Shown: positions 2,146 through 52,812 of the stretch, in pieces
How positions within the stretch are numbered: the stretch's first letter is position 1
Layout: every line of letters starts with the position of its first letter
Source of the DNA: a virus
Lineage: Duplodnaviria; Caudoviricetes
IMG/VR virus record: IMGVR_UViG_2864522212_000004
Location: 64,001-128,000 of that record
Reading direction: 5' to 3' (one strand)
DNA length: 64,000 nt
The notes under the pieces: generated by a model
Told to the model about the DNA's origin: nothing
Databases searched by the model: none
The model's input: the letters and a program-made list of their open reading frames with translations, nothing else
Translations under genes and position numbers: made by a program

Positions 2146-2176
2146 TATGTGGACATATTCAGTATAACAGGCATAT
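2146..2176 (-). promoter_or_regulatory. Box A promoter/operator, copy 1
   Basis: Sense sequence ATATGCCTGTTATACTGAATATGTCCACATA: extended -10 (TGnTATACT) plus the TATGT-N2-ACATA palindrome. Confidence 0.75.
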
Positions 2177-2247
2177 TGTCGTTCGGAGACAATTCTAGGG
2201 GTCCGGCCTCCCGTTTTGGCGAGAAGCCGTGATGTCGCGAAATCGGC

Positions 2248-2277
2248 AATACCTGTTATACTGAATTAGTCCACATA
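2248..2277 (+). promoter_or_regulatory. Box A promoter/operator, copy 2 (divergent from copy 1)
   Basis: AATACCTGTTATACTGAATTAGTCCACATA. Confidence 0.7.
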
Positions 2278-2339
2278 AAATTTTCGTAGAAGGCACCAAT
2301 CATGCTCGGAAAACATCAAACAACAGGGCAGCGAGCCTG

Positions 2340-2477
2340 ATGGCAATCGACCCAGGAACCACGCTCATCCTCATCACGTGCCTCATCTGCACGATAGTGC
2401 TCGCCTTCGCCGGAAAAGAAACAGGCGACAAGACGGACACCAAACACGACAACGAACAACGAAAGCGCAAACGTTGA
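2340..2477 (+). CDS. Small single-TM protein (45 aa)
   Basis: Manual translation MAIDPGTTLILITCLICTIVLAFAGKETG...RKRKR; below the ORF-track length cutoff. Confidence 0.45.
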   Translation: MAIDPGTTLILITCLICTIVLAFAGKETGDKTDTKHDNEQRKRKR

Positions 2478-2570
2478 AAAATCACTCGACCGTACGCGGG
2501 ACGCCGGGGAATGGACACTCTCCTATATCGGACAGCCCGGACGCCGGCGGCATGTGAAAGGCGGACGACG

Positions 2571-2867
2571 ATGAGGCACGGCGCATCATCCCGACACATG
2601 GGGGAGCCCCGGCCGGCGGCGGGCGTGGAGCCGGGACTGCTGGCAGCCAGCCTCGCCATGGCGCTCCTGCTCATGGCGTTCGGCGCCCTCGCCACCCTGG
2701 GCGGCGCGCTCCTGCTGCGGCTCCTGTCCGGCATCCGCATCATGACCGCCATCTCGCAGGCCGCCGCCGCCACGTTTTTCATACTGCTCATGCCGGCCGG
2801 CGTCTGCCGGCTCATCGCACGCATACGCGGATGGGATCCGGACCCGGATCCCACGGAAAGGAACTGA
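2571..2867 (+). CDS. Hypothetical membrane protein
   Basis: Two hydrophobic segments; RBS-like GAAAGG upstream; part of a tightly packed operon. Confidence 0.55.
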   Translation: MRHGASSRHMGEPRPAAGVEPGLLAASLAMALLLMAFGALATLGGALLLRLLSGIRIMTAISQAAAATFFILLMPAGVCRLIARIRGWDPDPDPTERN

Positions 2868-2869
2868 TC

Positions 2870-3211
2870 ATGGCATTCGACTACATGCATCCGCCGGAGG
2901 ATTTCGAATATCTGGGCGAATGGTGCAAAGCGTGGCGGGATCCCGCGACGGGGGATTGGACGATAAGCCAATTGCTCGACGGCCTGGAGACCGAGCAGAT
3001 CATCCTGTCCGGCGAGGAGGTCAGGGAATTGGCCCGGCTCGCCGCCCAACACGATCCGACCGATTACGAGCTGGAGTACGGGGAGCTGCGCCGACCCATG
3101 TTCGGCTCGCCGGACGAGAACGGGACGGCCGTCAACGCCGCGGAGGGCGCGGGCGGCGAACAGGCCCGCATCCATTCGGTCGAAGCCCTGCACCGGTTGG
3201 GGCGGTTCTGA
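2870..3211 (+). CDS. Hypothetical protein
   Basis: RBS AAAGGA, ATG 2870 (MAFDYMHPPE...), TGATG coupling to the next gene. Confidence 0.65.
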   Translation: MAFDYMHPPEDFEYLGEWCKAWRDPATGDWTISQLLDGLETEQIILSGEEVRELARLAAQHDPTDYELEYGELRRPMFGSPDENGTAVNAAEGAGGEQARIHSVEALHRLGRF

Positions 3212-3528
3212 TGGACGGGTACTGGTGGGGCGTGCTCACCCCGTTCGCGATCATACTGGGAATCCTGCTCCTGTATCTGACGGGCAATCTGTTCGGTGCA
3301 ATCGTCAGCTGGGCGTGGAAACGGGCGCATTACGGGCTGCTGAAGAAGGGGTGGATCGCCGAGGACTACGACGAGGATTCAAGGGAATGGACCACCCGCA
3401 CCGGCGCGGAACGCCTGGCGGCCGCGTTGACCCGGTCCGGCGAATACCGGATGCTCCCGTGCTTCGGCTGGATGATCTTCATCGTCCGCGACTACAAGAA
3501 TGAGAAACATGATGAGAAAAGGAATTGA
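3211..3528 (+). CDS. Hypothetical membrane protein
   Basis: MDGYWWGVLTPFAIILGILLLYL...; translationally coupled. Confidence 0.65.
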   Translation: MDGYWWGVLTPFAIILGILLLYLTGNLFGAIVSWAWKRAHYGLLKKGWIAEDYDEDSREWTTRTGAERLAAALTRSGEYRMLPCFGWMIFIVRDYKNEKHDEKRN

Positions 3529-4270
3529 TCCGCCCCATATCGTCGCGTTGACGATAGTCGTCTGCGCTGCCATCGTCCCCGCGTTCATGCTGTGGGGTCG
3601 GACGATCGGGGAATGGGCTGTCGGAATCGCCGTTTATACGCTGATTGCGGCAGTAGTGCTATCGCTGCTCGTCCTCGATTTTGTTATCGTCAGATATGAT
3701 GTCATGGCATTGCTGATACAAGCTCTGTCCGGTTCGGAAATCGTCGGTTCGGTATCGCGCCTGCTGTTTGTACTGGGCCAGATATGGGTCATCATCCTGC
3801 TCATACGGATTCCCCCATCGTTCTGGGAAAAGCGTTTGGCGGTATTGCCTTTCCAAGCGGATCCGGATAATTCCGCACTCGCGCTCTGCATTGGTTTAGC
3901 CTCAGGCGTTTTTCTTCTTGTCATAGTTGCGCGTTGGATGCCTGAAGACCTTCCGGGGGTCCCGGAATTCTGGAATGCGCAGGTTTGTATGGATTCGATT
4001 TTCGGGGTCGGTCTTCCATGGTCCAAGCCGGTCATATTCACCGTGTCTTCGAAAGGCTACACGATTATACGTCGGAATGGGATGCTGAAGCTGAACGAGC
4101 AGGCCGACGAGTTCTTGGACTATTGCCCAACATGGGTTTCGATTCGCAACGACCATCATCGGGGACTGCTCCTGATCGAACGGTACCACCCGGGCATGCA
4201 GGACATTGTCAACAGGTTGGATCGAGAGGCCGGTATCCGGCATCCGGCGGATAAGGAGACAGAAAATTGA
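3509..4270 (+). CDS. Polytopic membrane protein (4-5 TM), lower GC
   Basis: ORF 3500..4270 with several hydrophobic helices; start codon uncertain. Confidence 0.65.
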   Translation: MMRKGIDPPHIVALTIVVCAAIVPAFMLWGRTIGEWAVGIAVYTLIAAVVLSLLVLDFVIVRYDVMALLIQALSGSEIVGSVSRLLFVLGQIWVIILLIRIPPSFWEKRLAVLPFQADPDNSALALCIGLASGVFLLVIVARWMPEDLPGVPEFWNAQVCMDSIFGVGLPWSKPVIFTVSSKGYTIIRRNGMLKLNEQADEFLDYCPTWVSIRNDHHRGLLLIERYHPGMQDIVNRLDREAGIRHPADKETEN

Positions 4271-4509
4271 ACGAGGAGGAATACGAAGAGCTGGCACGCT
4301 GGCTGCCATGCCACCCCGGCCGATGGGTCGCATGGCCGGAACCGTTCGGAACCCGGGCCGAGGCCGACGCGTTGTTCGAATCGTTGCGCGACGGCGGGCT
4401 TGAATCATTCAAGGTCGATTCGGCCGCGCTCCGCTGGCGGATAGACGAGTTCAAATCGATTGTGGACGGGCGCGGGCTTATCTGGATGGAGGTGAGCTGC
4501 GCATGGTGA
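4267..4509 (+). CDS. Hypothetical protein
   Basis: TTG start overlapping the previous stop; RBS AAGGAG. Confidence 0.6.
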   Translation: MNEEEYEELARWLPCHPGRWVAWPEPFGTRAEADALFESLRDGGLESFKVDSAALRWRIDEFKSIVDGRGLIWMEVSCAW

Positions 4510-4852
4510 AAAGCCTCACAATCGGATTGGTCGATGATGGCGTTGCGACATGGAACCCGGTTTCCGATGGGAACCTACTGGTGACGGGTGGCGCGGGATG
4601 CGGCAAGACCTGGTGGCTGACACACACCCTGATACCTGATCTCAACGAAATGGGGCAACGGGTCTATATGTTTGACGGGTATGTGGATCGAGGTTATACC
4701 AAGCCCGTGCAAGGTGTGATTCCGGTGAACGATCCCACGTCCATCTTGGAAGAACCGGATTCCTTTCTGATTATCGACCATGTGAATCCGGGTCTTACGA
4801 CTAGTCACTTAAAGTATAGTATTCTGTGGTATTCTGTGTTATACTGGATGTC

Positions 4853-5440
4853 ATGAAACTATCCGAGTATGCGAAGCGTCACGACATCCAGTATCGTGCC
4901 GCGTGGAACCGTTACAAGGCAGGGCGGATTCCGGGCGCATACCAGGATGAGATGGGTGCGATCATCGTGCCCGACGATACGAAGGCCTCGGAGAGGGATG
5001 CCGTCATTTACGCGCGCGTGTCCGACCCGTCGAAACGCAAGACCCAATTGCCTGCCCAGCAGAAGCGCATGGAGGATTGGGCTGTCGCCAACGGGTACCG
5101 GGTCGTGGCCTCCGTGGCTGAGGTCGGGTCCGGCGTGAACGACAAGAGGCGCAAGCTAACCGCCCTGTTGAAGCGTGACGACTGGGGAACCCTGATCGTC
5201 GAACACAAGGACCGGCTGACTCGGTTCGGGTTCGAATGGTTCCGCCTGTTCGCCGAACAGACCGGCCGGCGCATCCTCGTGGTCAACGAAGCTGCGGATG
5301 ACCGGACGGACCTGATACAGGACCTCGTATCGATCATCTACTCGTTTTCCGCCCGCCTGTACGGGCGACGTCGTGCGGAGCGGGCCCAACGGATAGTCCG
5401 ACTGTTGGAGGAGGGAGGGTCTGATGGCGAGCAAGACTAG
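4853..5440 (+). CDS. tnpA: IS607 transposase (N-terminal HTH + serine recombinase)
   Basis: MKLSEYAK HTH; YARVS catalytic motif; EVGSG; EHKDRLTRFGF; FSARLYG. Confidence 0.95.
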   Translation: MKLSEYAKRHDIQYRAAWNRYKAGRIPGAYQDEMGAIIVPDDTKASERDAVIYARVSDPSKRKTQLPAQQKRMEDWAVANGYRVVASVAEVGSGVNDKRRKLTALLKRDDWGTLIVEHKDRLTRFGFEWFRLFAEQTGRRILVVNEAADDRTDLIQDLVSIIYSFSARLYGRRRAERAQRIVRLLEEGGSDGEQD

Positions 5441-16433: not shown

Positions 16434-16465
16434 ATATGCTTGTTATACTGAATATGTTCACATAG
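16434..16465 (+). promoter_or_regulatory. Box A copy 3 (ssb/methyltransferase operon)
   Basis: ATATGCTTGTTATACTGAATATGTTCACATAG. Confidence 0.75.
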
Positions 16466-16491: not shown

Positions 16492-17082
16492 ATGGCAGGA
16501 GAGCCGACACTCACACTCGCAGGCAATATCACAGCAAACCCCGAGCAGAGGGGAGATACGGTCACTTTCACCATCGCGCACAATACGCGTCGACGTGACC
16601 GTAACGGGCAGACCGTGGATGGGGATGCCGTATTCATGCGATGCGCAGCATTCGGAGACCTCGCCCAGAACATCATGCGCTCCTGCTATAAGGGCATGCG
16701 CGTGGTAGCCACCGGTTACATGAAAACCAACAATTGGACGGACAAGACCACCGGCCAACAGCGTAGCAATCTTGAAATGATCGTCACCGATTTGGGTGTC
16801 AGCCTCCGGTTCGGCGTCACGCAATTTCAGAAGACCAGCGGCCAACAGTCCAACGGCAACGGCTACCGGCAGAACAATTACGGCGGCGGATACCAGCAGC
16901 CGAACAACGGCTATCAGCAAGGCGCATACAACAACTACCAGCAGCAGGGTTACAGCCAACAGGCTCCCGCACAGACACCGGCGCAACCTGCAGCACCCTC
17001 ACAGCCCGCAATGGATCCGTGGGCTACGACCACGCCAGCCAGCACGGATCCGAACGGCGACGGCACCGACCCGGAATTCTAA
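16492..17082 (+). CDS. ssb: Single-stranded DNA-binding protein
   Basis: Actinobacterial SSB OB-fold (LAGNITANPE...KGMRVVATG), Q/G-rich linker, acidic DPEF tail. Confidence 0.95.
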   Translation: MAGEPTLTLAGNITANPEQRGDTVTFTIAHNTRRRDRNGQTVDGDAVFMRCAAFGDLAQNIMRSCYKGMRVVATGYMKTNNWTDKTTGQQRSNLEMIVTDLGVSLRFGVTQFQKTSGQQSNGNGYRQNNYGGGYQQPNNGYQQGAYNNYQQQGYSQQAPAQTPAQPAAPSQPAMDPWATTTPASTDPNGDGTDPEF

Positions 17083-17094: not shown

Positions 17095-18225
17095 TTGATC
17101 AACCTGGAAGATCTGGGCGACAACCTCCGCCTATACAAGGGGGATTGTCGCCGGCTCATCGCCTCCTTACCGGACAACAGCGTGGATTCCGTCGTTACCG
17201 ACCCGCCGTATGAGATCGGTTTCATGAACCGCAGCTTCGATTCCACAGGCATCGCGTTCGACGTGGACCTGTGGAAGGATATCCTGCGCGTCCTGAAGCC
17301 GGGCGGGCATGTGGCGGCGTTCGCGGCCAGCCGCACCTATCATCGGCTGGCATGCGCCATCGAGGATGCGGGCTTCGAAATCCGCGACCAGATCGACTGG
17401 GTGTACGCGTCCGGCATGCCACACGGTTCGGATGCGACGCTCATGATCGACCGGGAACGCCGCGAGGATGTGGAGCCGACGCGATCCGAGACGGCGAAAC
17501 CGTTCAAAGGCTGGTACAGCCAGCTGAAGCCCGCGCACGAACCCATCTGTCTGGCCCGCAAGCCGTTGGACGGGAATCTCGCCCACAATCTGCTCGGACA
17601 TGGGACAGGCGCACTGCATATCGACGCATGCCGCGTCCCATTCCGCAACACGGCGGACGAGGCGGAGTCGAAGGGCAAGAACCAGCATGGACGGTTCGGC
17701 TCCGGGCCGAGAGACAACCATGTATATGGTGCGGACAAAGCGAATCGCACCGACTACACGGCTGCCGCCCGTTTCACGCCGAACATGCTGTTCGACCAGT
17801 CCACGGCCAAGGAACTCGACCGACAGTCCGGCGTCACCGTCAGTCGAAAAGGCAAACCACGCGCAAGCACGAAACCCGGTGACGGCTGGGGCATGACCCA
17901 TACCGGTGCCGAATATGACGATATGGGCGGCGCGAGTCGATTCTACCCGGTTTTCAGGTATTGTCCGAAAGCCTCATCGGCTGAGCGGCCGAAAGTCGAC
18001 GGCATCCTCCATCCGACAGTCAAACCGGTCGAACTCATGCGCTGGCTTGTCCGTCTCGTCACCCCGGCGGATGGTCTCGTGCTGGAGCCGTTCGCCGGCA
18101 GCGGCACCACATTGGAAGCATGCCTACTCGAACACATGCAATGCACGGCAAGCGAACTCGATCCCGACTACATCAAGCTGATCCACGCACGACTCAGCAA
18201 ACCAATACAAAACGAACTTTTCTAG
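17095..18225 (+). CDS. Orphan N4/N6 DNA methyltransferase (beta class)
   Basis: TDPPY precedes HPTVKP and EPFAGSGT; no adjacent restriction nuclease. Confidence 0.92.
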   Translation: MINLEDLGDNLRLYKGDCRRLIASLPDNSVDSVVTDPPYEIGFMNRSFDSTGIAFDVDLWKDILRVLKPGGHVAAFAASRTYHRLACAIEDAGFEIRDQIDWVYASGMPHGSDATLMIDRERREDVEPTRSETAKPFKGWYSQLKPAHEPICLARKPLDGNLAHNLLGHGTGALHIDACRVPFRNTADEAESKGKNQHGRFGSGPRDNHVYGADKANRTDYTAAARFTPNMLFDQSTAKELDRQSGVTVSRKGKPRASTKPGDGWGMTHTGAEYDDMGGASRFYPVFRYCPKASSAERPKVDGILHPTVKPVELMRWLVRLVTPADGLVLEPFAGSGTTLEACLLEHMQCTASELDPDYIKLIHARLSKPIQNELF

Positions 18226-36386: not shown

Positions 36387-36827
36387 TCAGCCAACCGTCG
36401 CATCGTCCGCGGTCCAACCCATCAGCTTCAAAGCATCAGACACGTGGCTTCCGGCGCATTCGAGATCCTTGAACGTCTGACGTACGAGCTCCCGGACCTG
36501 CGGGTCGTCGAAATGCTGGCAGTCCAGCATGGTGCGTGCCAGTTCCGACGTGTTCATCGCATAATCATGCACCAGTCCCAGCATGTCTCGCTTCTGGTCC
36601 TCAGTCAGCTGCTCGTCTTCCAAGTCCGGTTCGCCGTAGTCGAATTCGTCCACTTCGCCCGGTGCGTACTGGAATCCGACCGGAGGTGTCGGCATGTCCG
36701 GTTCATGCCCTTCGCGCTGCCTGTCCAGCCATGCGTTCCAGAACTCCTCCCCCTCCTCGCGCGTCACGTTTTCGGGAAGGTTGTCCAAGAAGGTGTCTCG
36801 GATTGTTTGTGTGGTGATGTCTGCCAT
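36387..36827 (-). CDS. Hypothetical acidic protein
   Basis: MADITTQTIRDTF...; RBS-like GGAG upstream. Confidence 0.65.
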   Translation of the reverse strand: MADITTQTIRDTFLDNLPENVTREEGEEFWNAWLDRQREGHEPDMPTPPVGFQYAPGEVDEFDYGEPDLEDEQLTEDQKRDMLGLVHDYAMNTSELARTMLDCQHFDDPQVRELVRQTFKDLECAGSHVSDALKLMGWTADDATVG

Positions 36828-36898
36828 TTGTTTTTTTCTCCAATCGGTTTTTTCTGATGGCGTTTTTTTGATTCGATGTTCTTGCGATGTCCGGGGGG

Positions 36899-37435
36899 CT
36901 ATTCCGCCCGATGCGGCCGAGCCGAGAGTCCGCCGATGATGCTTTGGACGACGGTCGTGACCGGGGCCGGATCGCGTGGATCGGGGTTTCCCCCCGGCCG
37001 TGTCTGCGGCAGGCTTTTCGTCGCCCCGTCCCTCGGGCCGCCCAGCATCGGGTGACGGGACAATTCCAACGCACGCTGCACCGCCTGCGTGGCGGGACGG
37101 CCACGGCCCAATGATTTGAGCAGAGAGCGTCGGAACTGCCACATCTCGTCGGGGTCGGAAATCTGGTTCTCCTCCATCAGCCGGGTGATGGTCGCCTCCG
37201 ATGGCATCGACTGCCGTCGTTTCCTTCTCACGGCGAGGTTGATATCCCCCACCGTCATCCATTCGCCGTGAGGATGCAATGCGTAGAATTCCCGTACCGC
37301 GGCGTTGGCCTCGTCGAACGACACCGATCTGGACAGCTCCTCGTAGAAGCATTGGGCCTGCGCGTCGCTGATTGGCGCGTTCCCGTGATGTACGTTGATG
37401 CGGCGCAGCACCTGCAGAGCTTCGTTAAAGTTCAT
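36899..37435 (-). CDS. Putative helicase loader/inhibitor (phage G39P-like)
   Basis: MNFNEALQVL...SFDEANAAVREFY...GDI pattern; overlaps the end of the initiator gene, as in actinophage replication modules. Confidence 0.55.
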   Translation of the reverse strand: MNFNEALQVLRRINVHHGNAPISDAQAQCFYEELSRSVSFDEANAAVREFYALHPHGEWMTVGDINLAVRRKRRQSMPSEATITRLMEENQISDPDEMWQFRRSLLKSLGRGRPATQAVQRALELSRHPMLGGPRDGATKSLPQTRPGGNPDPRDPAPVTTVVQSIIGGLSARPHRAE

Positions 37436-38474
37436 CGAATTCCTCCTCTCGCGGATGGGCTTCGTCCCAGGCGGCGGCCCGCGCTTGGACTTCCGCATTG
37501 TGCATGTCGTTCAGCATGCTCTTCGGCAGCCTGCCGTTCGCCGGCAGGTTCTCCGGGTGTAGCGCGATGTTGTTGGGGTCGCGCCCCATTTTCAGGTTTT
37601 GGATGTCCCGTTCGAGCCAACGCCTGTATGTGGCATCCCAGTTGGCGCTGCGGTGTTCGGGTTTCTCCTGCGTGTAGTAGGCGACGAACAGGGTGACTTC
37701 GCGGATCAGGTTGACTCCCGCCTTGGCCGTGGCGATGCGCAGTTCGGGCGAGGGCTTCCAGTCGGGAGCCAACACGGTCTGACGGGTCGCGGGCTTCTTC
37801 TCTTTTTTCGGAACTTTTCTCTTCTTCGAAGAAACCGCGGACGGTTTCTTCTGAATCGGAGAGGTTTCCTCAACCCTGCTGGAACTCTGAGAAGCTTCGA
37901 AAGAAGCATTCTCGTTTTCAGGCTCTGAGGCGGACTCGTCCGCCGATTTTTCGTTTTTCTCCGATTCTGGATTTTGAGGGGATAGAGAGGAGTAGATATC
38001 CTCTGTTCCTCTGTTCCTCTGTTCCCCTGTTCCCCTGTTCCGGGCGTGGAAATCTCGATGGGGTCTCGCGACACTCTCGCGACAGTCTCGCGAATCTGGG
38101 TCTGAACCGTTGGAATCATTGGGTTCTGCCATCTCATGAGACGGATACCTCGACTTGCCTGGCTTATCGATTCTCTGGTGCCTTGACCATGTCGCAATCT
38201 CCAGATATGGGGTGCCGTCGAACTCGTAGCGATATATCAATCCAGCTTCAGAAAGACTCGCGAGGGCTCGCGACACTCTCGCGACAGTCTCGCGAGGGTC
38301 TTTGATGAGATCAGCCGCGAACAGGTCTCCGATGATGTCGTAGTCGATATCCTTGCCTACCCCGTTATCATCCACGTAACTCCATAGACCTATGAAAACC
38401 AGTCTGGCGTCCCAGTTGAGATTCGCTATATCCCGGCTGCGCCAGAACTCCGGCTTGATGCTCCTGATGCGCAT
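37425..38474 (-). CDS. Phage-type replication initiator (replisome organiser)
   Basis: MRIRSIKPEFW...ARLVFIGLWSYVDDNG N-terminus; disordered linker carrying DNA repeats; C-terminal NWDATYRRW (DnaT-like). Confidence 0.8.
   Translation of the reverse strand: MRIRSIKPEFWRSRDIANLNWDARLVFIGLWSYVDDNGVGKDIDYDIIGDLFAADLIKDPRETVARVSRALASLSEAGLIYRYEFDGTPYLEIATWSRHQRIDKPGKSRYPSHEMAEPNDSNGSDPDSRDCRESVARPHRDFHARNRGTGEQRNRGTEDIYSSLSPQNPESEKNEKSADESASEPENENASFEASQSSSRVEETSPIQKKPSAVSSKKRKVPKKEKKPATRQTVLAPDWKPSPELRIATAKAGVNLIREVTLFVAYYTQEKPEHRSANWDATYRRWLERDIQNLKMGRDPNNIALHPENLPANGRLPKSMLNDMHNAEVQARAAAWDEAHPREEEFDEL
38003..38295. repeat. Intragenic iteron-like repeats (candidate origin)
   Basis: 5x CTGTTCCY (38003-38042); TCGCGA at a 10-11-bp period (38066/77/88 and 38258/68/79/90); identical 29-mer at 38065 and 38267. 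Confidence 0.7.
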
Positions 38475-38501
38475 GGCTCTCTTTTCTTCCGAAGAACCCG
38501 G

Positions 38502-38762
38502 TCAGACGGTCTTGGATAGGGGAACGTTCTTGTTCATCTCGGCGAGGGCTCTTGCATAATCGCAGAGGCCGAACATGTCCGTTAGTCCCAGTGCCTTGCC
38601 TACGATGTCGAGTTCGTTGCTGTCCCATATGGTGTGCTGGTTGAGTCTGCGGCCCGTTGCCTCTCGCGTGGTTCCTAGATCTTTGGCGAGTTGTTTCACC
38701 TGGTAGTTCTGGGTTGCCATGCGAGCGAGGATCGCTTGGGAGATGATTTCGTTTGATGACAT
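38502..38762 (-). CDS. Cro-like HTH regulator
   Basis: QVKQLAKDLGTTREATGRRLNQHTIWDSNEL; divergent from the XRE repressor. Confidence 0.8.
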   Translation of the reverse strand: MSSNEIISQAILARMATQNYQVKQLAKDLGTTREATGRRLNQHTIWDSNELDIVGKALGLTDMFGLCDYARALAEMNKNVPLSKTV

Positions 38763-38887: not shown

Positions 38888-39472
38888 ATGGTACGGAATG
38901 ACAGACTTAAGAAGACCGGGGAGAGCACCAAGCTCATAGCGGAGTTCGTTGAAGAACGTCGGCGAGCAAAGAGTCTGACCCAAAAGCAGATTGCTTCGGC
39001 CTTGGGCGAGAAGACGAGCCAATCCTACGTATCCGTCCGATTGCGCGGAAAAGCTGCATGGACGATGGATGACCTTGATGCCATTGCACCTCTCATAGAT
39101 TTTGACAATGCCATCGAATTGATCGGAAACCTAGCCCGAAAACGAGCTACCGAGGAAAACGAGCCCGGGCTGCTTGCCCGTCAGTTCGTAGCCATCATGG
39201 ATGGGGACAACGTCGTTCAGATTATTGATGGGCCATCCTCTTCCATTCCGGTCTCCGGACTTCCCCATGACACATCAGTCGATACGGGCGTTACCTCCGA
39301 TAAGAGAGGCACGGTTCCTGTTCCTCATGCACGTTCGGTTAAACCCTCGTCTCTATCCGATGAAGAGCGTAAGCGTATCGTTTTGGAGAAACTACGTAGG
39401 GGTGACGTGTCCTTGCCGGCGAACAAGGATCCGCATAAGCTCGCGGAAATGGAAGGCGGTGACGGCCGCTAG
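38888..39472 (+). CDS. XRE-family repressor (cI/ImmR-like)
   Basis: LTQKQIASALG...SQSYVSVRLRGKAAW HTH; C-terminal LPANKDPHK tail. Confidence 0.85.
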   Translation: MVRNDRLKKTGESTKLIAEFVEERRRAKSLTQKQIASALGEKTSQSYVSVRLRGKAAWTMDDLDAIAPLIDFDNAIELIGNLARKRATEENEPGLLARQFVAIMDGDNVVQIIDGPSSSIPVSGLPHDTSVDTGVTSDKRGTVPVPHARSVKPSSLSDEERKRIVLEKLRRGDVSLPANKDPHKLAEMEGGDGR

Positions 39473-39990
39473 TGACGACTGCTCGCCCCTGTTCTGTCAG
39501 AGTATCCTCTTCTCGAACCGATTCGATAGGAGGATATTCAACCGTGTTGACGGCCGCACCATTCGACCGCCACATGCCCATCAACCGTGGCATGACCTAC
39601 GAGCAGATGCTCGATGCCGTGGAAACCCAGCCAGTCCACGTCATCGAAGCCACGCTTGACGATGACACTTCAGGCCTCTACTGTGAGGCTATCCAGACCA
39701 TAATCATCGACGAGCATATGACCGACGTGCAGAAACGATGCTCTCTCACCCATGAATTGTTCCACTGGCTGCACGCCGATGATTCGCATGCGGAATACGG
39801 GAAAAGCCATGCCGAATGGCGTGTGCGCCGTGAAACCGCCATGTTTCTGATCGACCCGGCGGACTATGTGCAGGCCGAACGGGAATATGATGGCGAGATC
39901 TATCAGATGTCCTGTGAGATGGATGTCACGGTATTCCTTTTGGAGGACTACCGTCGGATTTTGGAATATAGCCAGCCATTGCATAGCTGA
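39472..39990 (+). CDS. ImmA/IrrE-family metallopeptidase
   Basis: GLY...IIID...KRCSLTHELFH (HExxH)...AEWRV; follows the repressor. The true start may be downstream. Confidence 0.85.
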   Translation: MTTARPCSVRVSSSRTDSIGGYSTVLTAAPFDRHMPINRGMTYEQMLDAVETQPVHVIEATLDDDTSGLYCEAIQTIIIDEHMTDVQKRCSLTHELFHWLHADDSHAEYGKSHAEWRVRRETAMFLIDPADYVQAEREYDGEIYQMSCEMDVTVFLLEDYRRILEYSQPLHS

Positions 39991-40003
39991 GGAGAGATAA
40001 ATC

Positions 40004-41317
40004 ATGGGACATCTGGACCCGTTCCTGCAAGACCTCAATGGTATCGGAATCATCGCCATGATGGTAGGCATCAGTGCAGTGATAGTCCGCGTGGTTTTCT
40101 GCAAGACCATGCGGGACAGAATCTATACGGGCGTGGGGGGATTAATATCCGCGATCGTCATGTCGCTGGGTATTGATTATGCGATACGGCCATTCGCCGG
40201 TACTGGTGAATCGACTGCGACGAATGGACTGGGGTTCGTCCAGCTCATGATAGGTGTGGTTATCGCGCTTATCGGAGGTGCCGTTTTGCGCGGCATCCTG
40301 AGTCTTGACGATGGCGAACCACAGCCGACAAGCAATTCCCTCATTATGGACACGCAGACGGAGCTGAACCGTCTTGCACCCCGATACGGGCTGGTGGCCG
40401 CCATGAGCAACGAGGACTCCTATTATGGCTGGTTCGTGATAGACCACGACAACGGCGGCTCCCCCGACCCGTTGTATGAGGCCAGTCTCAACGCGAACCT
40501 GCAACAGGAACGCCAGCTCGGGAAACTGTACGGCGATCCGGGTTCCGGCTTGGACTATTCCGCTTTCGGAAACACGGCCGTACAGGCCGGCCAGCAGGGC
40601 GAATCCGCATTGGCCAGAATCATCGCCTACATGCGGCTCAACGTCATCTCCTTCTGGTCCCTGTACGGGCTCAACGAGAACCGCCAGCCCATCAACGCGG
40701 ACATCGACTGCGTGCTGGTCGGCATAGACCCGCAACAGCAGGTGCATGCCTGGTTCGTGGACGCGAAGAACTACAAGGGCGGCAGCGACACCAAATACGT
40801 GAACCTGGATCCACGAAACCTGGTGCGCATGAGCATCAGCCGTCGAGCCCTCATCAAAGGCTCGGACGGAACACCCGTGGTCAAGATGAGCGAGAACATG
40901 GCAACCCAACGCGATAATTGGGCGTCCACGCTCGAAACCTATCACGTGGCAGCCCAATGGATGGTCTGCATGGTACCGGGCGGACATAACGGCAACCCGG
41001 ATGTCAGCGAAGCCGTCTGGCCGGGCAATGTTCGTGTCGTGACGCCTGGACAGTTGGTTGCGGAAATCCAATCCCTGAGCCTGCTGCCGGTGGACAATAT
41101 TCCGCCACGTGTCGTCAGACTGTTCACCTCGGCAGTCAAACAACAGGCTCCTGCGCCAGCAGCGCCGGTGACGAACACTGTGCCGATGCCTGTGACCTCA
41201 CCCGTTCCAGCCCCTATCCCCCAGCCGGCAATAACGAACAACTGCCCCAAATGCGGTCAGCCATTGAACGGACAAACCAACTTCTGCCCGAACTGCGGCA
41301 CACCGCTCAACGCCTAA
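40004..41317 (+). CDS. 3-TM protein with a NERD-like PD-(D/E)xK domain and C-terminal zinc ribbon
   Basis: GQQGE...DIDCVLVG...VDAKNYK; CPKCG/CPNCG; RBS AGGAG. Confidence 0.75.
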   Translation: MGHLDPFLQDLNGIGIIAMMVGISAVIVRVVFCKTMRDRIYTGVGGLISAIVMSLGIDYAIRPFAGTGESTATNGLGFVQLMIGVVIALIGGAVLRGILSLDDGEPQPTSNSLIMDTQTELNRLAPRYGLVAAMSNEDSYYGWFVIDHDNGGSPDPLYEASLNANLQQERQLGKLYGDPGSGLDYSAFGNTAVQAGQQGESALARIIAYMRLNVISFWSLYGLNENRQPINADIDCVLVGIDPQQQVHAWFVDAKNYKGGSDTKYVNLDPRNLVRMSISRRALIKGSDGTPVVKMSENMATQRDNWASTLETYHVAAQWMVCMVPGGHNGNPDVSEAVWPGNVRVVTPGQLVAEIQSLSLLPVDNIPPRVVRLFTSAVKQQAPAPAAPVTNTVPMPVTSPVPAPIPQPAITNNCPKCGQPLNGQTNFCPNCGTPLNA

Positions 41318-45128: not shown

Positions 45129-45137
45129 ATTTTCTCC

Positions 45138-45422
45138 TTAATGACATTCCGGGCACAGCCACTCGTCTGTGGCGCAGTCCCATCCGTTTTCAATGAGTTC
45201 GTCATGGTTTCCCATTGCTGTTTTCCCGCATTTGCTGCAGGTCAGATGCCAGTGTTGCGGACAGTAGTGGTTTTCGTCTCCATCCAATTGCCATCCGTCG
45301 GAACTGGCGTCATCGTCTGCGTCGTCTTTGTCTGTGTAATAAGCGCTGCCGTCTTCGGGGTCGTATTGTTCATCGCATTCGTCGCAGTGGATTGCGACGA
45401 ATTTCTTCTCGGTGAAACTCAT
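45138..45422 (-). CDS. Small double zinc-finger protein
   Basis: CDEC...GW...HYCPQH and CSKC...GW...CPECH. Confidence 0.65.
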   Translation of the reverse strand: MSFTEKKFVAIHCDECDEQYDPEDGSAYYTDKDDADDDASSDGWQLDGDENHYCPQHWHLTCSKCGKTAMGNHDELIENGWDCATDEWLCPECH

Positions 45423-45748: not shown

Positions 45749-46152
45749 TTGTTTTCCTCTCTTTGATGATGCTTGTCTTCGATGACCCGGATGCGTTGAA
45801 TGCCGTCGAGATGAATGTGCATGGGTGTGCCGGTGATCCAATTCCAATACACGTGATCCAACACGACGGGAATGGTTGAGCCGTCTCTGATTCGTGCCGT
45901 GATTGTTCTCTCCCACCAGCATCCGGTGTTGTGTTCCAGAATCTGAACGGGCGCGGTGACTGTAAAGCCTTGCAGTGGCTTCGGGGCTGTGTCATTGAAT
46001 TCGACTTCTACCGTTTTCCCTTCGAATCGGATACGTATGTCATTGATCGCCGCATCAAGGAGTGGCTTGTGCCGTCTCCCGTATTCGCCGCATCCTTGAC
46101 GGTCTCGTAATTCGTTCTTGTAAGGGATGTTGATCGATGATGCCCCGTTCAA
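45745..46152 (-). CDS. Hypothetical protein
   Basis: Overlapping start and stop codons with both neighbours. Confidence 0.6.
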   Translation of the reverse strand: MNGASSINIPYKNELRDRQGCGEYGRRHKPLLDAAINDIRIRFEGKTVEVEFNDTAPKPLQGFTVTAPVQILEHNTGCWWERTITARIRDGSTIPVVLDHVYWNWITGTPMHIHLDGIQRIRVIEDKHHQREENN

Positions 46153-46574
46153 GATTCCAGCTCCTGGTTAATATCGTCGATATTCTTTCCTTCTACCAGT
46201 CGAATCATCAACGCGATAGCCCGGCACATCTTCGGATAATCTCCGAACCGTAAGGCATTCCAGAACTGGAATTCGTATTGTTCCGTCTGGGATTGATGCT
46301 GCAGCGCATTGATGATGCCAAGCTGACGGCAGGTCAAAGCGACAGGCTCGTTCCTGTTTTCCGCATAATGCGTATACCAGAGAGCCTTTCTCAGGTCTTC
46401 GACCGGCTTGTTCTTCGACCGGTATCTCCACACGTATTTGACGGCGTTGCCCATGCAGAAGCTCATGCCGGCGGTCAGGTCAATACATTCCAGACCGGGA
46501 TGGGATAATTCGTAGTGTGCGGGATGTTCTACCGGATCGGCGTCACCGACTCGCGTCACTGTTTCATTGCTCAA
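46149..46574 (-). CDS. DUF3310 family protein (SaV/T7 gp1.7-like)
   Basis: DPVEHPAHY...ECID...FCMGNAVKYVWR...EDLRKALWY. Confidence 0.85.
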   Translation of the reverse strand: MSNETVTRVGDADPVEHPAHYELSHPGLECIDLTAGMSFCMGNAVKYVWRYRSKNKPVEDLRKALWYTHYAENRNEPVALTCRQLGIINALQHQSQTEQYEFQFWNALRFGDYPKMCRAIALMIRLVEGKNIDDINQELES

Positions 46575-47119: not shown

Positions 47120-47121
47120 GA

Positions 47122-48247: not shown

Positions 48248-48264
48248 GTTTTCGTTCTTTCTAT

Positions 48265-48555
48265 TCAGATGACGGGATTCGCGGGAACTCTCGTTGGATT
48301 GCCTGCTGCGACATACTGCCCATAGTCCGGGTCGTCTTTGCAGAGTGTCCAGTCTCCGCTGCCGTCATCGTGGTAGGTCATGTGTGATTTCACGCCTTGT
48401 TCGATGAGACATCCATGGGAGCAGGTGTTGAGACGGTTTTGTTCGGGTAGTTTCATATAGCCGTCGAGGCTGTTGCGGTCTGCTTCGGGACGGAGCACGA
48501 AGTCTCCTATTCCGTTTTGGATGTCTTGGATGCTTGTGTTGGCTGCGTGGCTCAT
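48265..48555 (-). CDS. Hypothetical protein, first gene of the operon
   Basis: RBS AAGGA; directly downstream of Box A. Confidence 0.6.
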   Translation of the reverse strand: MSHAANTSIQDIQNGIGDFVLRPEADRNSLDGYMKLPEQNRLNTCSHGCLIEQGVKSHMTYHDDGSGDWTLCKDDPDYGQYVAAGNPTRVPANPVI

Positions 48556-48577
48556 TGGTGGGTCTTCCTTCAATTCT

Positions 48578-48609
48578 CTATGTGGATATATTCAGTATAA
48601 CATGCATAT
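48578..48609 (-). promoter_or_regulatory. Box A copy 4
   Basis: Sense ATATGCATGTTATACTGAATATATCCACATAG. Confidence 0.75.
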
Positions 48610-48713
48610 ATCGTAGAAGATAATCCCAATGAAAGATATTCACGGTTTAAGGCAGGCGCCTGGTGCCGAGAAAGCCGAACCGACGTCCGCAGATTCTCCA
48701 GCCTCTATCCACT

Positions 48714-48986
48714 TTAGGCATTCTCGAAAGCCTCCTGATCGAACTTGGTATCCACGTGGACGGTCCATCCGCTGCTGATCACCTCATTGCAATAGTGCTT
48801 GCGGGATGCGACCACCTGGGATTGCAGGTACCTGTTGTCCCTCAGCTGTTCCGCAGTGGGGTTGCCGAACAGTGGCGTCGGTATTCTTTTCGACCCGGTC
48901 TCCGTGACGAAGTACAGGTTGAGCACCGTGTCGTCTTTTACGCGGCGCATAAAGTCGCCGAGTTTTTCGGTCTTGTCTTCAGACAA
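48714..48986 (-). CDS. Hypothetical protein
   Basis: RBS AAGGAG + TTG (MSEDKTEKLG...). Confidence 0.6.
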   Translation of the reverse strand: MSEDKTEKLGDFMRRVKDDTVLNLYFVTETGSKRIPTPLFGNPTAEQLRDNRYLQSQVVASRKHYCNEVISSGWTVHVDTKFDQEAFENA

Positions 48987-49011
48987 TGGATCTCCTTGCT
49001 GTTCCATACTT

Positions 49012-49042
49012 TATGTAGATATATTCAGTTTAACAGGCATAA
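49012..49042 (-). promoter_or_regulatory. Box A copy 5
   Basis: Sense TTATGCCTGTTAAACTGAATATATCTACATA. Confidence 0.7.
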
Positions 49043-49243
49043 CAGAATTGTTTCAGAAAAAAGAAAAGGTGCGGCTCACCCAAAAAGTCCACAAAGGAAA
49101 GCCGCACCATAGGAGAATCCGAGGAAAATCAGGATTGCCATCGAGAGGATTCGGGTCGAGAGAACGTAGGCCCTCATCCTGATATCTCAACCTACCGTAG
49201 TGTTTCCGAAACAACAGGCGATATATTGAAACAATCAGATGGC

Positions 49244-50236
49244 TTAATTTTCTTTCGCCTGGCATTGCTGCAGGAACCCGATCGTCTCGCTTTTCTCCCA
49301 ACTGCTCATGGAAAGTCCATACTTGTCTTTGATGTAGACGCGCTTGGCCATGTAGGAGCACTGGTAGCCGCTGTTGCTCGGCAGCCAGACGGATGGGGTG
49401 GATGCGGCCCATCGTCCGACGGACTTCTTGGGGACACCGCTCCCGTACAGGTTGATGCCCTCGCTTTTCGCATTGTTGGCATCCCCCTGGCTGGCAAGCA
49501 GCACGTCCGGATCGTTCGCGTATTTCACGCGATCGTTTTTCCTTGAGTTCTTCCACAGGCCGGAGGCCCATGCGTCGTTCAAGGCGACCACATGGTCGAT
49601 CTGCACTGCGGTGCTGTCTCCGCTGACGGTCTTCCCGTTCTTCACGACGCTCTTCCGGAAGTTGATGGTCTGGCCCGTATAGGGGTCATGCAGTGTCCCG
49701 GATTGCACCTTGCAATTGGAGTCCATGACTGGATCGGTCAAGTCACGGTTGAGTATGTAGTCGCGGGTGGTTCCGTATCCGCAAAGCTGGTCGCTGTTCT
49801 GCCAGTCCCCGAAATCCTCGGCGCGATTGTAGCCCTTCGTATGGGGTGTTTCGGTCGGGAGGTTCCGGGTGGCTGTGATGGCTTCGGACACGCTCATGGG
49901 GCTTGCTGCGGAAGCCGGCAGTCCGCTCGCTCCCATATCCGTGTTCGTGGAATCCTTTTCTCCGGTGTTCCCCGAGGAGGTCAGACCGTCTTTGATCTGG
50001 CCTTCGATTTTCGACAGGTCCGGTTTTTTCAACCCCAAGCCGATGTTTGTTTTCTGCATGGAGTCTTCGCTCGGAAGTATCTGACTGATGCTGGTTATTG
50101 CAGGCAACCCGAATTGTGGGGCGACCGTGGCCCATACTCCGGTTTGGATGATGACGATGATGGTTATGAGCACGATGGCCAAGCCGCCAAGGATGCCGGC
50201 GACGGTTATGCCGGTCTTGTTTTTTCTCGATGCCAC
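49244..50236 (-). CDS. Membrane-anchored extracellular HNH nuclease (DUF1524-like)
   Basis: N-terminal TM helix; DPYTG, QIDHVVAL..AW.SG, ANDP..LLA...N..KS, WLP...C.Y. Confidence 0.85.
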   Translation of the reverse strand: MASRKNKTGITVAGILGGLAIVLITIIVIIQTGVWATVAPQFGLPAITSISQILPSEDSMQKTNIGLGLKKPDLSKIEGQIKDGLTSSGNTGEKDSTNTDMGASGLPASAASPMSVSEAITATRNLPTETPHTKGYNRAEDFGDWQNSDQLCGYGTTRDYILNRDLTDPVMDSNCKVQSGTLHDPYTGQTINFRKSVVKNGKTVSGDSTAVQIDHVVALNDAWASGLWKNSRKNDRVKYANDPDVLLASQGDANNAKSEGINLYGSGVPKKSVGRWAASTPSVWLPSNSGYQCSYMAKRVYIKDKYGLSMSSWEKSETIGFLQQCQAKEN

Positions 50237-50250
50237 GACGGTTTCCTTTT

Positions 50251-50385
50251 CTAGAACAGTCCGCTGATGATGGTCCAGACGACCGCGATGACGAATAGGA
50301 TGACGATGATCGCTCCGAACAGGTCGGCGTTGCTGTTGACGAATTCCGCAAATGGGGGAAGTTCCGGTTTCTTGTCATTGGCCAT
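50251..50385 (-). CDS. Small membrane protein
   Basis: RBS AAGGAG; single TM helix. Confidence 0.6.
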   Translation of the reverse strand: MANDKKPELPPFAEFVNSNADLFGAIIVILFVIAVVWTIISGLF

Positions 50386-50395
50386 GATGGTCTCC

Positions 50396-51541
50396 TTAGT
50401 TGTTCTGTCCATTGTTTTGGCTGTCGGATGCCGTACCATCCGACGATGTGCCGTCTGAGGCGTTATCGGACGAGGTGTTGCCGGTCTCGTCGTCGGAGTT
50501 CGCCGAGGTCACGTCGCTTTTGTTCAGTGCGTTCGCATAGGGTCTCAACGTCCTGACGCTGCCATCCGCTCCCCAGTCGATGATCTTCGCGTTACCGGAT
50601 GTAGGGTTCTTGACCAGTACGGTGATGTTCGTCTTGACGGTCGAGCCGCCGGTGTTGTCCGAAGATGACGTGTCGCTTCCCTTATCGGAACTGTCTTGCA
50701 TCGCGGCATACGGTTCGAATGTGATGCTGATCGACGCCGCAGCATAGGGAGGCGTGTCGCTGGATTGTTCCTTTGGTACGGATTGCCCGTTCTTGTCGCA
50801 CTCCACAAGCCAGTTGATGCTCACGTTTTTGAATGTTCCGATGGCTGCTGGCTGGTAGGCGTGCTCGCTGTTCGGGTCCCCGACCAGCACGGTGAACGCG
50901 TTGCTGTCTTTCCCGATGTAGGCTTTCGCCCAAGCGTTGACGACGTTCTGGAAGCTGGACGCCTGGTCGATGCGAGAGTATCCGGATGGCGTATAGGATT
51001 GGGCTCCGCCAGCGCCGCTTGCTTTCAACGGCAGCACTGTTGGCTCTCCCACGGCGGTGGCCACGTTGTTCTTCCATGAAATGAGCTGGGTTACGTCGCG
51101 GGTGGATCCGTCGGACAGGTCGGTCAGGGAGAACTGGTGGCTCCACCAGTCGGTATGTTCCTTTCCTGTTCCGGTGTCCTCGTCACTGGATCCGACTTTT
51201 GTCGCCGAATCCCATAACAGGTTCGTGGTCCCGTAACGGAATGGTCCTTTGTTTGTGTCCAACCATTTGTTGACGGACGCCAAGGCTGCCTGTTTTCCTG
51301 GTTTGTCTACGCTGATCTCCTTGTATTTCGCGCTCAACATGGAACCCATGTCCTGCAGCGTGCTGATTGCGCGAATGCTGATGACGGGAGCGACGATTCC
51401 GGCGATCATGAACACGGTGATGAAAACTTTCCACCAGCGGGTGTTTCGCATGGCGCGTTTGATTGCCGTCAGTTCGACTTCGTTCTTCCGTTTGTCTTCG
51501 GTGATGTCCATTGGAGATTCAACGGATGCTTTTCGTGCCAC
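50396..51541 (-). CDS. Bitopic conjugation protein (TcpC/VirB8-like)
   Basis: One N-terminal TM helix plus a large external domain, in transfer-region context; family assignment is inference. Confidence 0.5.
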   Translation of the reverse strand: MARKASVESPMDITEDKRKNEVELTAIKRAMRNTRWWKVFITVFMIAGIVAPVISIRAISTLQDMGSMLSAKYKEISVDKPGKQAALASVNKWLDTNKGPFRYGTTNLLWDSATKVGSSDEDTGTGKEHTDWWSHQFSLTDLSDGSTRDVTQLISWKNNVATAVGEPTVLPLKASGAGGAQSYTPSGYSRIDQASSFQNVVNAWAKAYIGKDSNAFTVLVGDPNSEHAYQPAAIGTFKNVSINWLVECDKNGQSVPKEQSSDTPPYAAASISITFEPYAAMQDSSDKGSDTSSSDNTGGSTVKTNITVLVKNPTSGNAKIIDWGADGSVRTLRPYANALNKSDVTSANSDDETGNTSSDNASDGTSSDGTASDSQNNGQNN

Positions 51542-51624
51542 TTCGTCTCCTTGAGAATCTGAACGTGTTATCTAGTGTCAGACTATCCGGAGTCTCAGCG
51601 TGAAAGCGGTGGAAGTCGGGAAAA

Positions 51625-51661
51625 GAAAAAAGAGACTCGGATACTGCCGAGTCTCTTTTTT
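51625..51661. terminator. Bidirectional terminator
   Basis: AAAAAAGAGACTCGG-ATACTG-CCGAGTCTCTTTTTT. Confidence 0.8.
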
Positions 51662-51664
51662 GTG

Positions 51665-52048
51665 TCAGCGGGTCTGCGCGTATTTTCTGGCCAGCTCCAT
51701 GTCAAGTCCTCCGTTGACGAAGCATTGTTCCACCGCGGCGTTAAGAAGAGCCTGCGTGGTCATGTTCGTCTCGACCGACTTGATTCGCAGCGCGAGATAG
51801 TTTTCATCCGTCAGGTTCGTGCCGAGCCTCCGGTCGAACGAATACACGGGCTTCCTCCGGCCGGCCCTCCCGGATGCTTCATTCGTTTTCGTCTCATGAT
51901 CTTCCGGGATTGCTTCAGAGACTGCTTTCTGCTCGGGAGCCTCGACCGTCATCTTCGGTTCGGGGGGTTCGGATAGGAGAGGCCGACGCCCCATGTCGCG
52001 AGTGTCCTGCAGGCCGCGTCCGAAAGCGCTGTTGATATTCTTTACCAT
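51665..52048 (-). CDS. Type Ib partition partner (small centromere-binding protein, RHH-like C-terminus)
   Basis: Follows parA; flexible N-terminus then RRLGTNLTDENYLALRIKS...TTQALLNAAV (beta-alpha-alpha pattern). Confidence 0.65.
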   Translation of the reverse strand: MVKNINSAFGRGLQDTRDMGRRPLLSEPPEPKMTVEAPEQKAVSEAIPEDHETKTNEASGRAGRRKPVYSFDRRLGTNLTDENYLALRIKSVETNMTTQALLNAAVEQCFVNGGLDMELARKYAQTR

Positions 52049-52058
52049 GTTTCAACTC

Positions 52059-52721
52059 CTACTCGATGCCGAACTGTTTGACGAGGTCAATGAGCTCTTG
52101 GGTGACGGAAGCGTAATCCCTGTTGTCTATCTGGTTGGTTCCGTACAGATTCTTGATGGCTTCCCTCTCGTGGATGACCGTTTCGAATCGTGTTGCCTCC
52201 AGCTCATCCAATTGTTTCACTGCGTCACGCGCGAGTTTGGTTCGCGCTTTCACTCGCGTGAGCAGGATGATGCCGTTTCTGGCGGCCGCATAGGTCTTCC
52301 CTGCATGGCTCAAATCGCTGATGGACGGCTGGCAGGGGATGATTGACACGTCGGCCGCCTGGAGTGCCGTCTGCACCGTTCCCGCATCGGATGGAGGCGT
52401 GTCGATGATGACCCATCCTTTGTAGCGTTCGCGAATCCTGTCGGGCATTCCGAGGATCACGTCATTGGTTTGGATCACGTCGAAACCCAGCTTGTAGGGT
52501 TTGTGCGGAGTCCCGTTGGCTTCGTCTTCTTTGCGACGACGATCGTCCTCGATTCGCACGTATTCGTCCCAGAGCGTCGCGCCACCGGTGTTGTCGGCGT
52601 CCAGAACCGTGACGTGTTCGCCGCGCCGGGCGAGGCATCCGGCGATGAGCATGGCTGTCGTCGTTTTTCCGACGCCGCCTTTGATGTCGGCGACCGCGAC
52701 AAGAATCGTGCTTTTCAGCAT
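52059..52721 (-). CDS. parA: ParA Walker-type partition ATPase (type Ib, no N-terminal HTH)
   Basis: KGGVGKTT, LDAD, IIDTPP, IIPCQPS. Confidence 0.92.
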   Translation of the reverse strand: MLKSTILVAVADIKGGVGKTTTAMLIAGCLARRGEHVTVLDADNTGGATLWDEYVRIEDDRRRKEDEANGTPHKPYKLGFDVIQTNDVILGMPDRIRERYKGWVIIDTPPSDAGTVQTALQAADVSIIPCQPSISDLSHAGKTYAAARNGIILLTRVKARTKLARDAVKQLDELEATRFETVIHEREAIKNLYGTNQIDNRDYASVTQELIDLVKQFGIE

Positions 52722-52783
52722 GCTGTTTTCTCCTCTGTTCACGTTTTCCGCCGCCAAGGTGGAGGCGTGGGACGCGCTTTTTT

Positions 52784-52812
52784 TATGTGGCCACATTCAG
52801 TGTAGCAGAGGC
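52784..52812 (-). promoter_or_regulatory. Box A copy 6 (parA promoter)
   Basis: Sense GCCTCTGCTACACTGAATGTGGCCACATA. Confidence 0.6.

Follow-up and report, generated by a model that had tools for sequence, protein, structure and literature searches.

Box A, the published promoter motif of pMP7017-family megaplasmids, and the conserved asymmetric box at its predicted transcription start

Introduction

Dispersed operators that overlap the -10 element or the start site and co-regulate genes across a whole plasmid are known from conjugative plasmids, as in the KorA/KorB system of IncP-1 and the CUP repeats with ArdK of IncN; in both systems the sites are palindromic and have known plasmid-encoded readers, one of them a ParB homologue. 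Mycobacteriophage L5 carries about 20–30 short asymmetric sites, the stoperators, which stand in one orientation relative to transcription, lie mostly within transcription units and block elongation. The Reg576/EGeRS2 establishment regulon is known from p576 of Bacillus and from the pLS20 family (Val-Calvo et al. 2018, PMC6294495; 2021, PMC8708921); in p576 an autoregulated ribbon-helix-helix repressor, itself encoded in the regulon, binds as two dimers to an operator made of a dual TTATCCC heptamer. Closest of all is a 34-bp motif described in the Bifidobacterium breve conjugative megaplasmid pMP7017 (Dineen, Bottacini, O'Connell-Motherway, van Sinderen 2024, Microb Biotechnol 17:e14405; PMC10832533), of which 19 copies are predicted to drive 56 genes, or about 24% of the coding capacity. 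Here we analyse Box A, a motif repeated along a window of 64,000 nucleotides (nt; the whole stretch of DNA that was analysed), which comprises bases 64001-128000 of a single 136,254-bp contig, the IMG/VR virus record IMGVR_UViG_2864522212_000004.

The pMP7017 motif came to light in steady-state log-phase cells, at six genes with high expression. It overlaps the -10 of active pMP7017 promoters, whose transcript starts were mapped approximately by RNA-seq, and it was called a "likely transcription factor binding site"; the genes behind it were termed the "presumed pMP7017-specific regulon". The motif is present in homologous plasmids and absent from bifidobacterial chromosomes. The same study noted longer 5' untranslated regions (5' UTRs) in highly expressed genes, with a possible regulatory role, and found pMP7017-type megaplasmids in about 10% of the screened gut metagenome samples, mostly from infants and mothers (PMC10832533).

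Results

Box A is the published motif of the pMP7017 family

The 136-kb contig is filed as a viral record, but its gene content is that of a conjugative megaplasmid and includes many phage-like genes for replication and recombination. The first 25 kb of the window are 95% identical in DNA to a 169-kb Bifidobacterium longum plasmid and 76% identical to pMP7017, and pMP7017 homologues exist for 138 of the 167 proteins predicted by our rough gene calls. Because of this DNA identity to both megaplasmids and the shared proteins, the contig is, judging from its sequence, a pMP7017-family megaplasmid (a B. longum-type relative) and not a phage.

The published 34-bp consensus includes the 24-nt core of Box A, TGTTATACTGAATATGTCCACATA. 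It is firmly established that Box A is the promoter motif already published for the pMP7017 family, and that both the motif and its presumed regulon were known; the original prediction, whose author knew of no description in bifidobacteria, had overlooked the 2024 publication (PMC10832533). The two motifs agree in sequence, in overlapping the -10, in their site before start codons, in copy number (19), in plasmid family, in their orthologous downstream genes and in their absence from chromosomes. They differ in that the host element here is a 136-kb B. longum-type relative, that the 5-8 nt upstream of the TG are lineage-specific and that four boxes precede different cargo. This is no difference in kind. 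The present element contributes one more instance and a set of comparative points: orthologous boxes, the identities of promoter pairs and a distant variant in a Bifidobacterium species genome, here G024.

Nineteen copies stand ahead of genes in sense orientation

Judged by its layout and by the published account, Box A is a promoter for the host RNA polymerase, with an extended -10 (TG-n-TATACT) and no conserved -35. The -10 is joined at a fixed distance (G and five variable nucleotides) to an asymmetric GTCCACA(TA) at about +1 to +9, the start-site box, downstream of which come a short A-rich leader and a ribosome-binding site.

A 29-nt consensus scanned across the window with up to three mismatches gave five matches (copies 1 to 5 in Table 1) and no match in 100 shuffles. 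The sixth copy is degenerate, with four mismatches in the 24-nt core and three in a 15-nt core; it has the same layout and points at parA. All six copies originally predicted are thus present, their coordinates exact or 1-2 nt off, and each points at a start codon 14-62 nt downstream. Six is the number for the window and not for the element: the whole plasmid carries 19 copies of the 24-nt core, 14 of them with three mismatches or fewer and four perfect. Every one of the 19 is intergenic and in sense orientation, 2-150 nt ahead of a start codon; ten lie on the minus and nine on the plus strand, and three divergent back-to-back pairs occur. When co-directional genes are counted until the next strand switch or box, the upper bound for genes behind Box A is about 85 plasmid-wide, 28 of which are in or touch the window.

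A weak seventh match at 4837(+) was rejected as a member of the set, being an extended -10 only, with the start-site box absent. It belongs to an IS607-type transposase gene (4853-5440, plus strand), which starts about 6 nt after this TG-extended TATACT resembling the first half of Box A; because the distance is so short, the transposase transcript may be leaderless.

Table 1. Box A copies, the genes that follow them and related features (window coordinates unless a locus is named; aa, amino acids)
Feature	Position	Strand	Remarks
Box A copy 1	2146..2174	-	Perfect 29-mer; heads the LPD28-protein operon
Operon of copy 1	LPD28 protein 1121-2131; 160-aa protein 624-1106; 55-aa protein 445-612; then a phosphoesterase homologue	-	Phosphoesterase runs off the window start
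Box A copy 2	2249..2277	+	Divergent partner of copy 1; heads the operon of a mini-open reading frame (mini-ORF) and small genes
Operon of copy 2	12-codon mini-ORF 2302-2340; 45-aa protein 2340-2477; 89-aa protein 2598-2867; 113-aa protein 2870-3211; 105-aa protein 3211-3528	+	
Box A copy 3	16436..16464	+	Heads ssb and the N6_N4 DNA methyltransferase gene
Operon of copy 3	ssb 16492-17082; N6_N4 DNA methyltransferase 17095-18225	+	
Box A copy 4	48579..48607	-	Heads a run of up to 11 small genes including DUF3310
Operon of copy 4	48555 down to 43383; DUF3310 at 46149-46574	-	Up to 11 small genes; the others without family
Box A copy 5	49012..49040	-	Heads a single 90-aa gene
Gene of copy 5	90-aa protein 48714-48986	-	
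Box A copy 6	52784..52812	-	Degenerate (4/24 core mismatches); heads the parA operon
Operon of copy 6	parA 52059-52721; 127-aa partner 51665-52048; 381-aa protein 50396-51541; 44-aa protein 50251-50385; GmrSD_C/HNH-like protein 49244-50236	-	
Look-alike extended -10	4837..4851	+	Without GTCCACA box; directly precedes the start codon of the IS607-type transposase
Small acidic cysteine-pattern protein	45138-45422	-	
Small acidic cysteine-pattern proteins	L002:14746-15102 and L002:15592-15906	+	

The asymmetric start-site box, not the palindrome, is the invariant part

For 15 of the 19 boxes the first downstream gene has a box-carrying orthologue in pMP7017 (protein identity 40-98%), including genes whose products are no more than 40-50% identical, and the first genes of the other four are without a pMP7017 homologue. 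With positions counted from the first base of the 24-nt core, orthologous promoter pairs agree at 82% of positions in the extended -10 (TG included), at 73% in the 6-nt spacer and at 84% across the 9-mer of the start site (slight underestimates, one of the 15 pairs being mis-registered by 8 nt). Identity in the flanks is at about the random level: 32% at -40 to -11, 35% at -10 to -1 and 38% in the 20 nt after the box. Given box identities of 73-84% against 32-38% in the flanks, and boxes shared by 15 of 19 orthologues, it is firmly established that Box A is under strong purifying selection and, as the searches below indicate, private to the plasmid family. Information content peaks at the TG, at TA-ACT and at the G after the -10, and is highest at GTCCACATA. 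Taken as a stand-alone word, GTCCACATA occurs 15 times on the plasmid where about one occurrence would be expected; a few copies lack a -10, one of them in the dnaB operon and conserved in pMP7017.

Distant boxes come from G024, in which contigs C4, C23, C27 and C36 (loci L220-L234) represent one or more large, distant megaplasmid relatives that share 61 of the 167 plasmid proteins at 25-75% identity. They carry 46 copies of TATACTG-N5-GTCCACA. These copies have no TG extension, and in most of them a private box, CGGCGTGTC, precedes the -10 by 16 nt. After TATACT the layout is G-N5-GTCCACAC, the spacer being mostly TAATT, with CA after the box where the present plasmid has TA. Because G024 exchanged the basal elements yet kept the box and its distance to the -10, the function of the start-site box appears separable from basic promoter recognition, which is our main argument.

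The original prediction had placed an operator in a palindrome, TATGT-N2-ACATA, over the start site. Its left arm is the more weakly conserved of the two, the palindrome is complete in just 9 of the 19 copies here and in 10 of 24 in pMP7017, and it is absent from the 46 G024 copies, which keep GTCCACA alone; we therefore reject it as the conserved operator. Since orthologous boxes are conserved against random flanks, and since G024 keeps TATACTG-N5-GTCCACA without the palindrome, the invariant part is the asymmetric start-site box.

Box A is rare outside the plasmid family

An exact 21-mer of the motif has a single match in 185,579 species genomes and 65 loci on 31 IMG/VR contigs. The lone genome match, on a 5.5-kb contig of a "Ruminococcus" metagenome-assembled genome, was discarded, as it lies inside a protease-like ORF and has neither TG extension nor leader; one match is compatible with the roughly 0.3 expected by chance. 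Bifidobacterium species genomes were reached via a 16S probe, the ssb protein having retrieved no genome loci; at up to three mismatches, 142 of these 151 genomes had no match, eight had one and G024 had ten, and a reversed control gave two. A relaxed pattern ("-10, six bases, GTCCACA") was found 28 times in 40 other Bifidobacterium genomes against about 60 times for its reversed control, and because it is not enriched there, host promoters do not use the start-site box. A motif equally common in host chromosomal promoters, which had been named as a possible refutation of the original prediction, was not observed. The central description in that prediction, a dispersed promoter motif with an extended -10 and a conserved start-site box ahead of plasmid-private operons, agrees with the published account (PMC10832533) and with our conservation tests.

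Two other Bifidobacterium species genomes have, on contigs L200 and L203, a complete Box A-plus-leader module before a gene that we judged by eye to encode a family-2-type glycosyltransferase. No plasmid genes lie within 3 kb of the module, which has the appearance of a promoter transferred to these contigs from the plasmid family.

Genes behind Box A

The Box A products confirmed by Pfam in the window are LPD28, SSB, the N6_N4 methyltransferase, DUF3310, ParA and the GmrSD_C/HNH-like protein; elsewhere on the plasmid they are an RNase T-type exonuclease, an Enc34-type single-stranded-DNA (ssDNA)-binding protein, Lar and DnaB. The list of downstream genes first drawn up thus holds for LPD28, SSB, methyltransferase, DUF3310 and ParA, whereas its "LPD29-like", "tandem Lar-like" and "dam stub" entries were not reproduced by Pfam at E<=0.01 inside the window; outside it, one Box A operon does include a true Lar gene. 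The identity of the metallophosphoesterase at the end of the first operon comes solely from the annotation of the 95%-identical plasmid.

The remaining products are mostly without family, among them several small, very acidic, cysteine-rich proteins. For ten small first-gene proteins neither PHROG nor Pfam returned a match, and no Pfam or PHROG family was found for the products of the copy 2 operon, which are 95-98% identical to those of pMP7017. Genes for the type IV secretion system (T4SS)-like ATPase cluster, adhesin and pilus genes, rep genes, toxin-antitoxin pairs and insertion sequence elements are not behind Box A. This split of the gene content fits an "early / DNA-handling / anti-defence" set behind the motif.

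Several of the small, very acidic proteins have a cysteine pattern in common (CxxC ... CP-A/Q-H ... CxxC) that has no Pfam match, and these may be the proteins first called "tandem Lar-like". The mini-ORF directly after copy 2 has a stop codon that overlaps the start of the 45-aa membrane-like gene (TGATG), an arrangement that is the same in pMP7017. A terminator-like hairpin (49067-49081, minus strand) lies just upstream of copy 5.

Discussion

What reads the start-site box

We hold with moderate confidence that the start-site box is a protein-binding control site. It would act at the DNA level, a sequence-specific protein on the transcription start damping the promoters, and about a quarter to half of the plasmid genes (phage-like DNA metabolism, anti-restriction and many unknown small genes) would form one co-regulated set. 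In its favour stand the purifying selection on the motif, its privacy to the plasmids and the separability of the box from basal promoter recognition, stand-alone boxes included. Within this reading we would tentatively name a repressor specific to the plasmid family as the reader, and with less conviction the host initiator DnaA, an unlikely candidate that is considered below.

Several results weigh against a control site with a dedicated protein. The strictly fixed register of -10 and box would also fit a promoter-intrinsic role, an RNA-level role or a host-encoded reader, and so would the invariance of the box across lineages whose proteins are 30-55% identical. Six motif promoters head highly expressed steady-state genes in pMP7017 (PMC10832533), so any repression would have to be partial. 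No cognate regulator was found, the small first-gene proteins being without a Pfam or PHROG DNA-binding family; the sole exception among the small and first-gene proteins is a 121-aa HTH_Tnp_2 protein encoded before dnaB. The other candidates fared no better. The 127-aa ParA partner has a C-terminus that is ribbon-helix-helix-like by eye; its strand region differs from that of the pMP7017 orthologue (45% identity) while the box is identical. The ImmR-like XRE protein encoded with ImmA (38888-39990) has a diverged helix-turn-helix and is 39% identical overall. A 215-aa XRE protein beside a variant box has a conserved helix-turn-helix but was not found in G024 with the XRE query.

Two further possibilities were rejected. 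A role for the ParA partner as a KorB- or omega-style global regulator is contradicted by its divergent strand region and by the parA box, which is the poorest and most degenerate copy. RepB iterons do not account for the box, as their published critical bases, GGnCnAnnR, do not match it.

Alternative explanations

If the reader were DnaA, the start-site box would be a DnaA box, and host DnaA at +1 would tie plasmid transcription to the host initiator, or about 20 sites would titrate DnaA; this is a sub-case of the control-site reading and not an addition to it. We derived the host DnaA box from the dnaA/oriC regions of five Bifidobacterium genomes, where TCCACA is over-represented 2-4 times, mostly as TTATCCACA and in some instances as TTGTCCACA. 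The Box A 9-mer has the TCCACA core and matches seven of nine positions of TTATCCACA and eight of nine of TTGTCCACA, and the commonest G024 variant is exactly TTGTCCACA; a conserved host reader would moreover explain why the box is invariant where proteins are 30-55% identical, and a three-box cluster, one box of perfect host type, stands in the dnaB operon of both the 136-kb plasmid and pMP7017. The deviations from the host oriC form are concentrated in the first three positions, position 3 being mostly G in Box A and mostly A in host oriC boxes and positions 1-2 being poorly conserved in Box A, while conservation runs 2 nt past the 9-mer (TA here, CA in G024) and DnaA boxes are not characterised by a constant spacing to a -10. 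A different view, in which no dedicated regulator is involved, takes Box A as a portable strong promoter-leader cassette for high constitutive expression and as a recombination joint for cassette swaps between megaplasmids. Composed of an extended -10, a favourable discriminator and initial transcribed sequence, an A-rich unstructured leader and a strong ribosome-binding site, such a cassette would suit the discovery of the motif at highly expressed pMP7017 genes (PMC10832533), the fixed register of box and -10 in about 90 copies and the likeness of leader and ribosome-binding site among copies, especially in pMP7017. It would also suit the 8 nt just upstream, for which likeness within a plasmid (0.42-0.49) exceeds that between plasmids (0.32), a hint of concerted evolution, the four of 19 boxes whose first genes have no pMP7017 homologue, as expected at cassette junctions, and the complete modules before glycosyltransferase genes in two other species genomes. 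We nevertheless consider it rather unlikely: nine invariant bases at +1 to +9 are not normally needed for promoter strength, host promoters do without the box, stand-alone boxes without a -10 exist, and G024 lost the TG extension and gained a box in the -35 region yet kept the start-site box.

The conserved bases could instead act in RNA, a common mRNA 5' end (GUCCACAUA, then an A-rich tract) serving as a signal for stability, translation or processing or as the target of an RNA-binding factor. The most conserved block does lie at and after the predicted +1 and always in sense orientation, stand-alone copies occur within operons immediately ahead of a ribosome-binding site, so that processing there would yield an identical 5' end, and longer 5' UTRs with a possible regulatory role are on record for highly expressed genes (PMC10832533). 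We regard this role as improbable, for the untranscribed G at -6 and the spacer length are conserved as well (the predicted +1 being imprecise), no structure or complementary RNA was found, and every occurrence of the complement belongs to this same set of sites. Least probable by far, to the point that we reject it as a general mechanism, is a single-stranded-DNA promoter of the Frpo or pLS20 EGeRS1 type that fires on the incoming strand. It was suggested by the divergent pair 2146/2249, which as single-stranded DNA folds into a long hairpin, restoring the box in double-stranded form (-36.5 kcal/mol, z = -8.5), and by the presence of three divergent pairs on the plasmid. That pair with its flanks (window 2136-2287) is a 152-nt inverted repeat, however, and any two inverted copies would trivially give such a hairpin; none of the four single boxes of the window folds better than shuffles on either strand (z -1.0 to +0.7), boxes lie on both strands, so that one transferred strand cannot serve all of them, and the promoters are active in resident double-stranded plasmids (PMC10832533).

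In the dnaB operon, the three TCCACA repeats lie outside the window at L005:7695-7735 (plasmid 134,695-134,735), between two genes and without a -10; the first repeat is TTATCCACA. In pMP7017 the cluster is likewise present, near 60,374, and it may represent a site that binds DnaA or resembles an origin.

Relation to other plasmid regulons and the establishment question

The original prediction had seen in the Box A set an establishment regulon, repressed in donors and induced zygotically upon entry into a recipient. We consider this a reasonable but rather improbable hypothesis. Should a plasmid repressor exist, new transconjugants would inevitably pass through a transient de-repression, an "establishment" burst, and the gene content (ssb, an orphan methylase, Lar, an ssDNA-binding protein, nucleases and many small acidic proteins) is compatible with the idea without proving it. 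The six highly expressed steady-state motif promoters of pMP7017 argue against tight repression in resident cells.

With the p576/pLS20 regulon, Box A shares one regulatory sequence at several promoters, multiple operons of variable and mostly unknown genes and the inclusion of anti-restriction genes. Unlike the p576 operator, it is single and asymmetric, with no repeated or symmetric half-site, and no autoregulated repressor was found within the set, in which the first-gene and small proteins have no DNA-binding family except for the 121-aa HTH_Tnp_2 protein. Compared with the KorA/KorB and CUP systems, the plasmid has no ParB, the palindrome is not conserved, and neither is the DNA-contacting strand region of the ParA partner. 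The stoperators of L5 and Box A are both asymmetric one-orientation sites of actinobacterial mobile elements, and Box A differs in being fused to a -10 at a fixed distance.

Implications

About a quarter or more of the genes of pMP7017-type megaplasmids, mostly of unknown function, stand behind one motif. Knowing the reader of the box, and whether entry into a new cell induces the set, would open dozens of unannotated genes to functional study, as candidates for anti-defence or establishment functions, and identification of the reader would also yield a regulated promoter for Bifidobacterium genetics. If that reader proved to be DnaA, the host protein would occupy the start site of about 20-46 promoters, among them those of ssb, of methylase, anti-restriction and recombination genes and of many unknown ones, and a quarter or more of the genes would be coupled to the state of the host initiator, for example through an expression burst once the plasmid is first double-stranded in a new cell; the cell would simultaneously be loaded with dozens of DnaA sites.

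Other regulatory loci on the plasmid

Between the gene for the 215-aa XRE protein and that for the Enc34-type ssDNA-binding protein lies a direct repeat of CAGAWAACTGCGT, the two copies 82 nt apart (L001:3239-3333). A variant Box A whose -10 reads TATATT directly adjoins the second copy. The repeat is conserved in pMP7017 and is probably the XRE protein's own operator. A further locus at 38888-41317 (plus strand) encodes an XRE helix-turn-helix protein, an ImmA/IrrE-type peptidase and a zinc-ribbon protein. It is divergent from a minus-strand run (36387-38762), adjoins the adhesin and pilus genes, and is a candidate ICEBs1-like ImmR/ImmA switch, separate from Box A.

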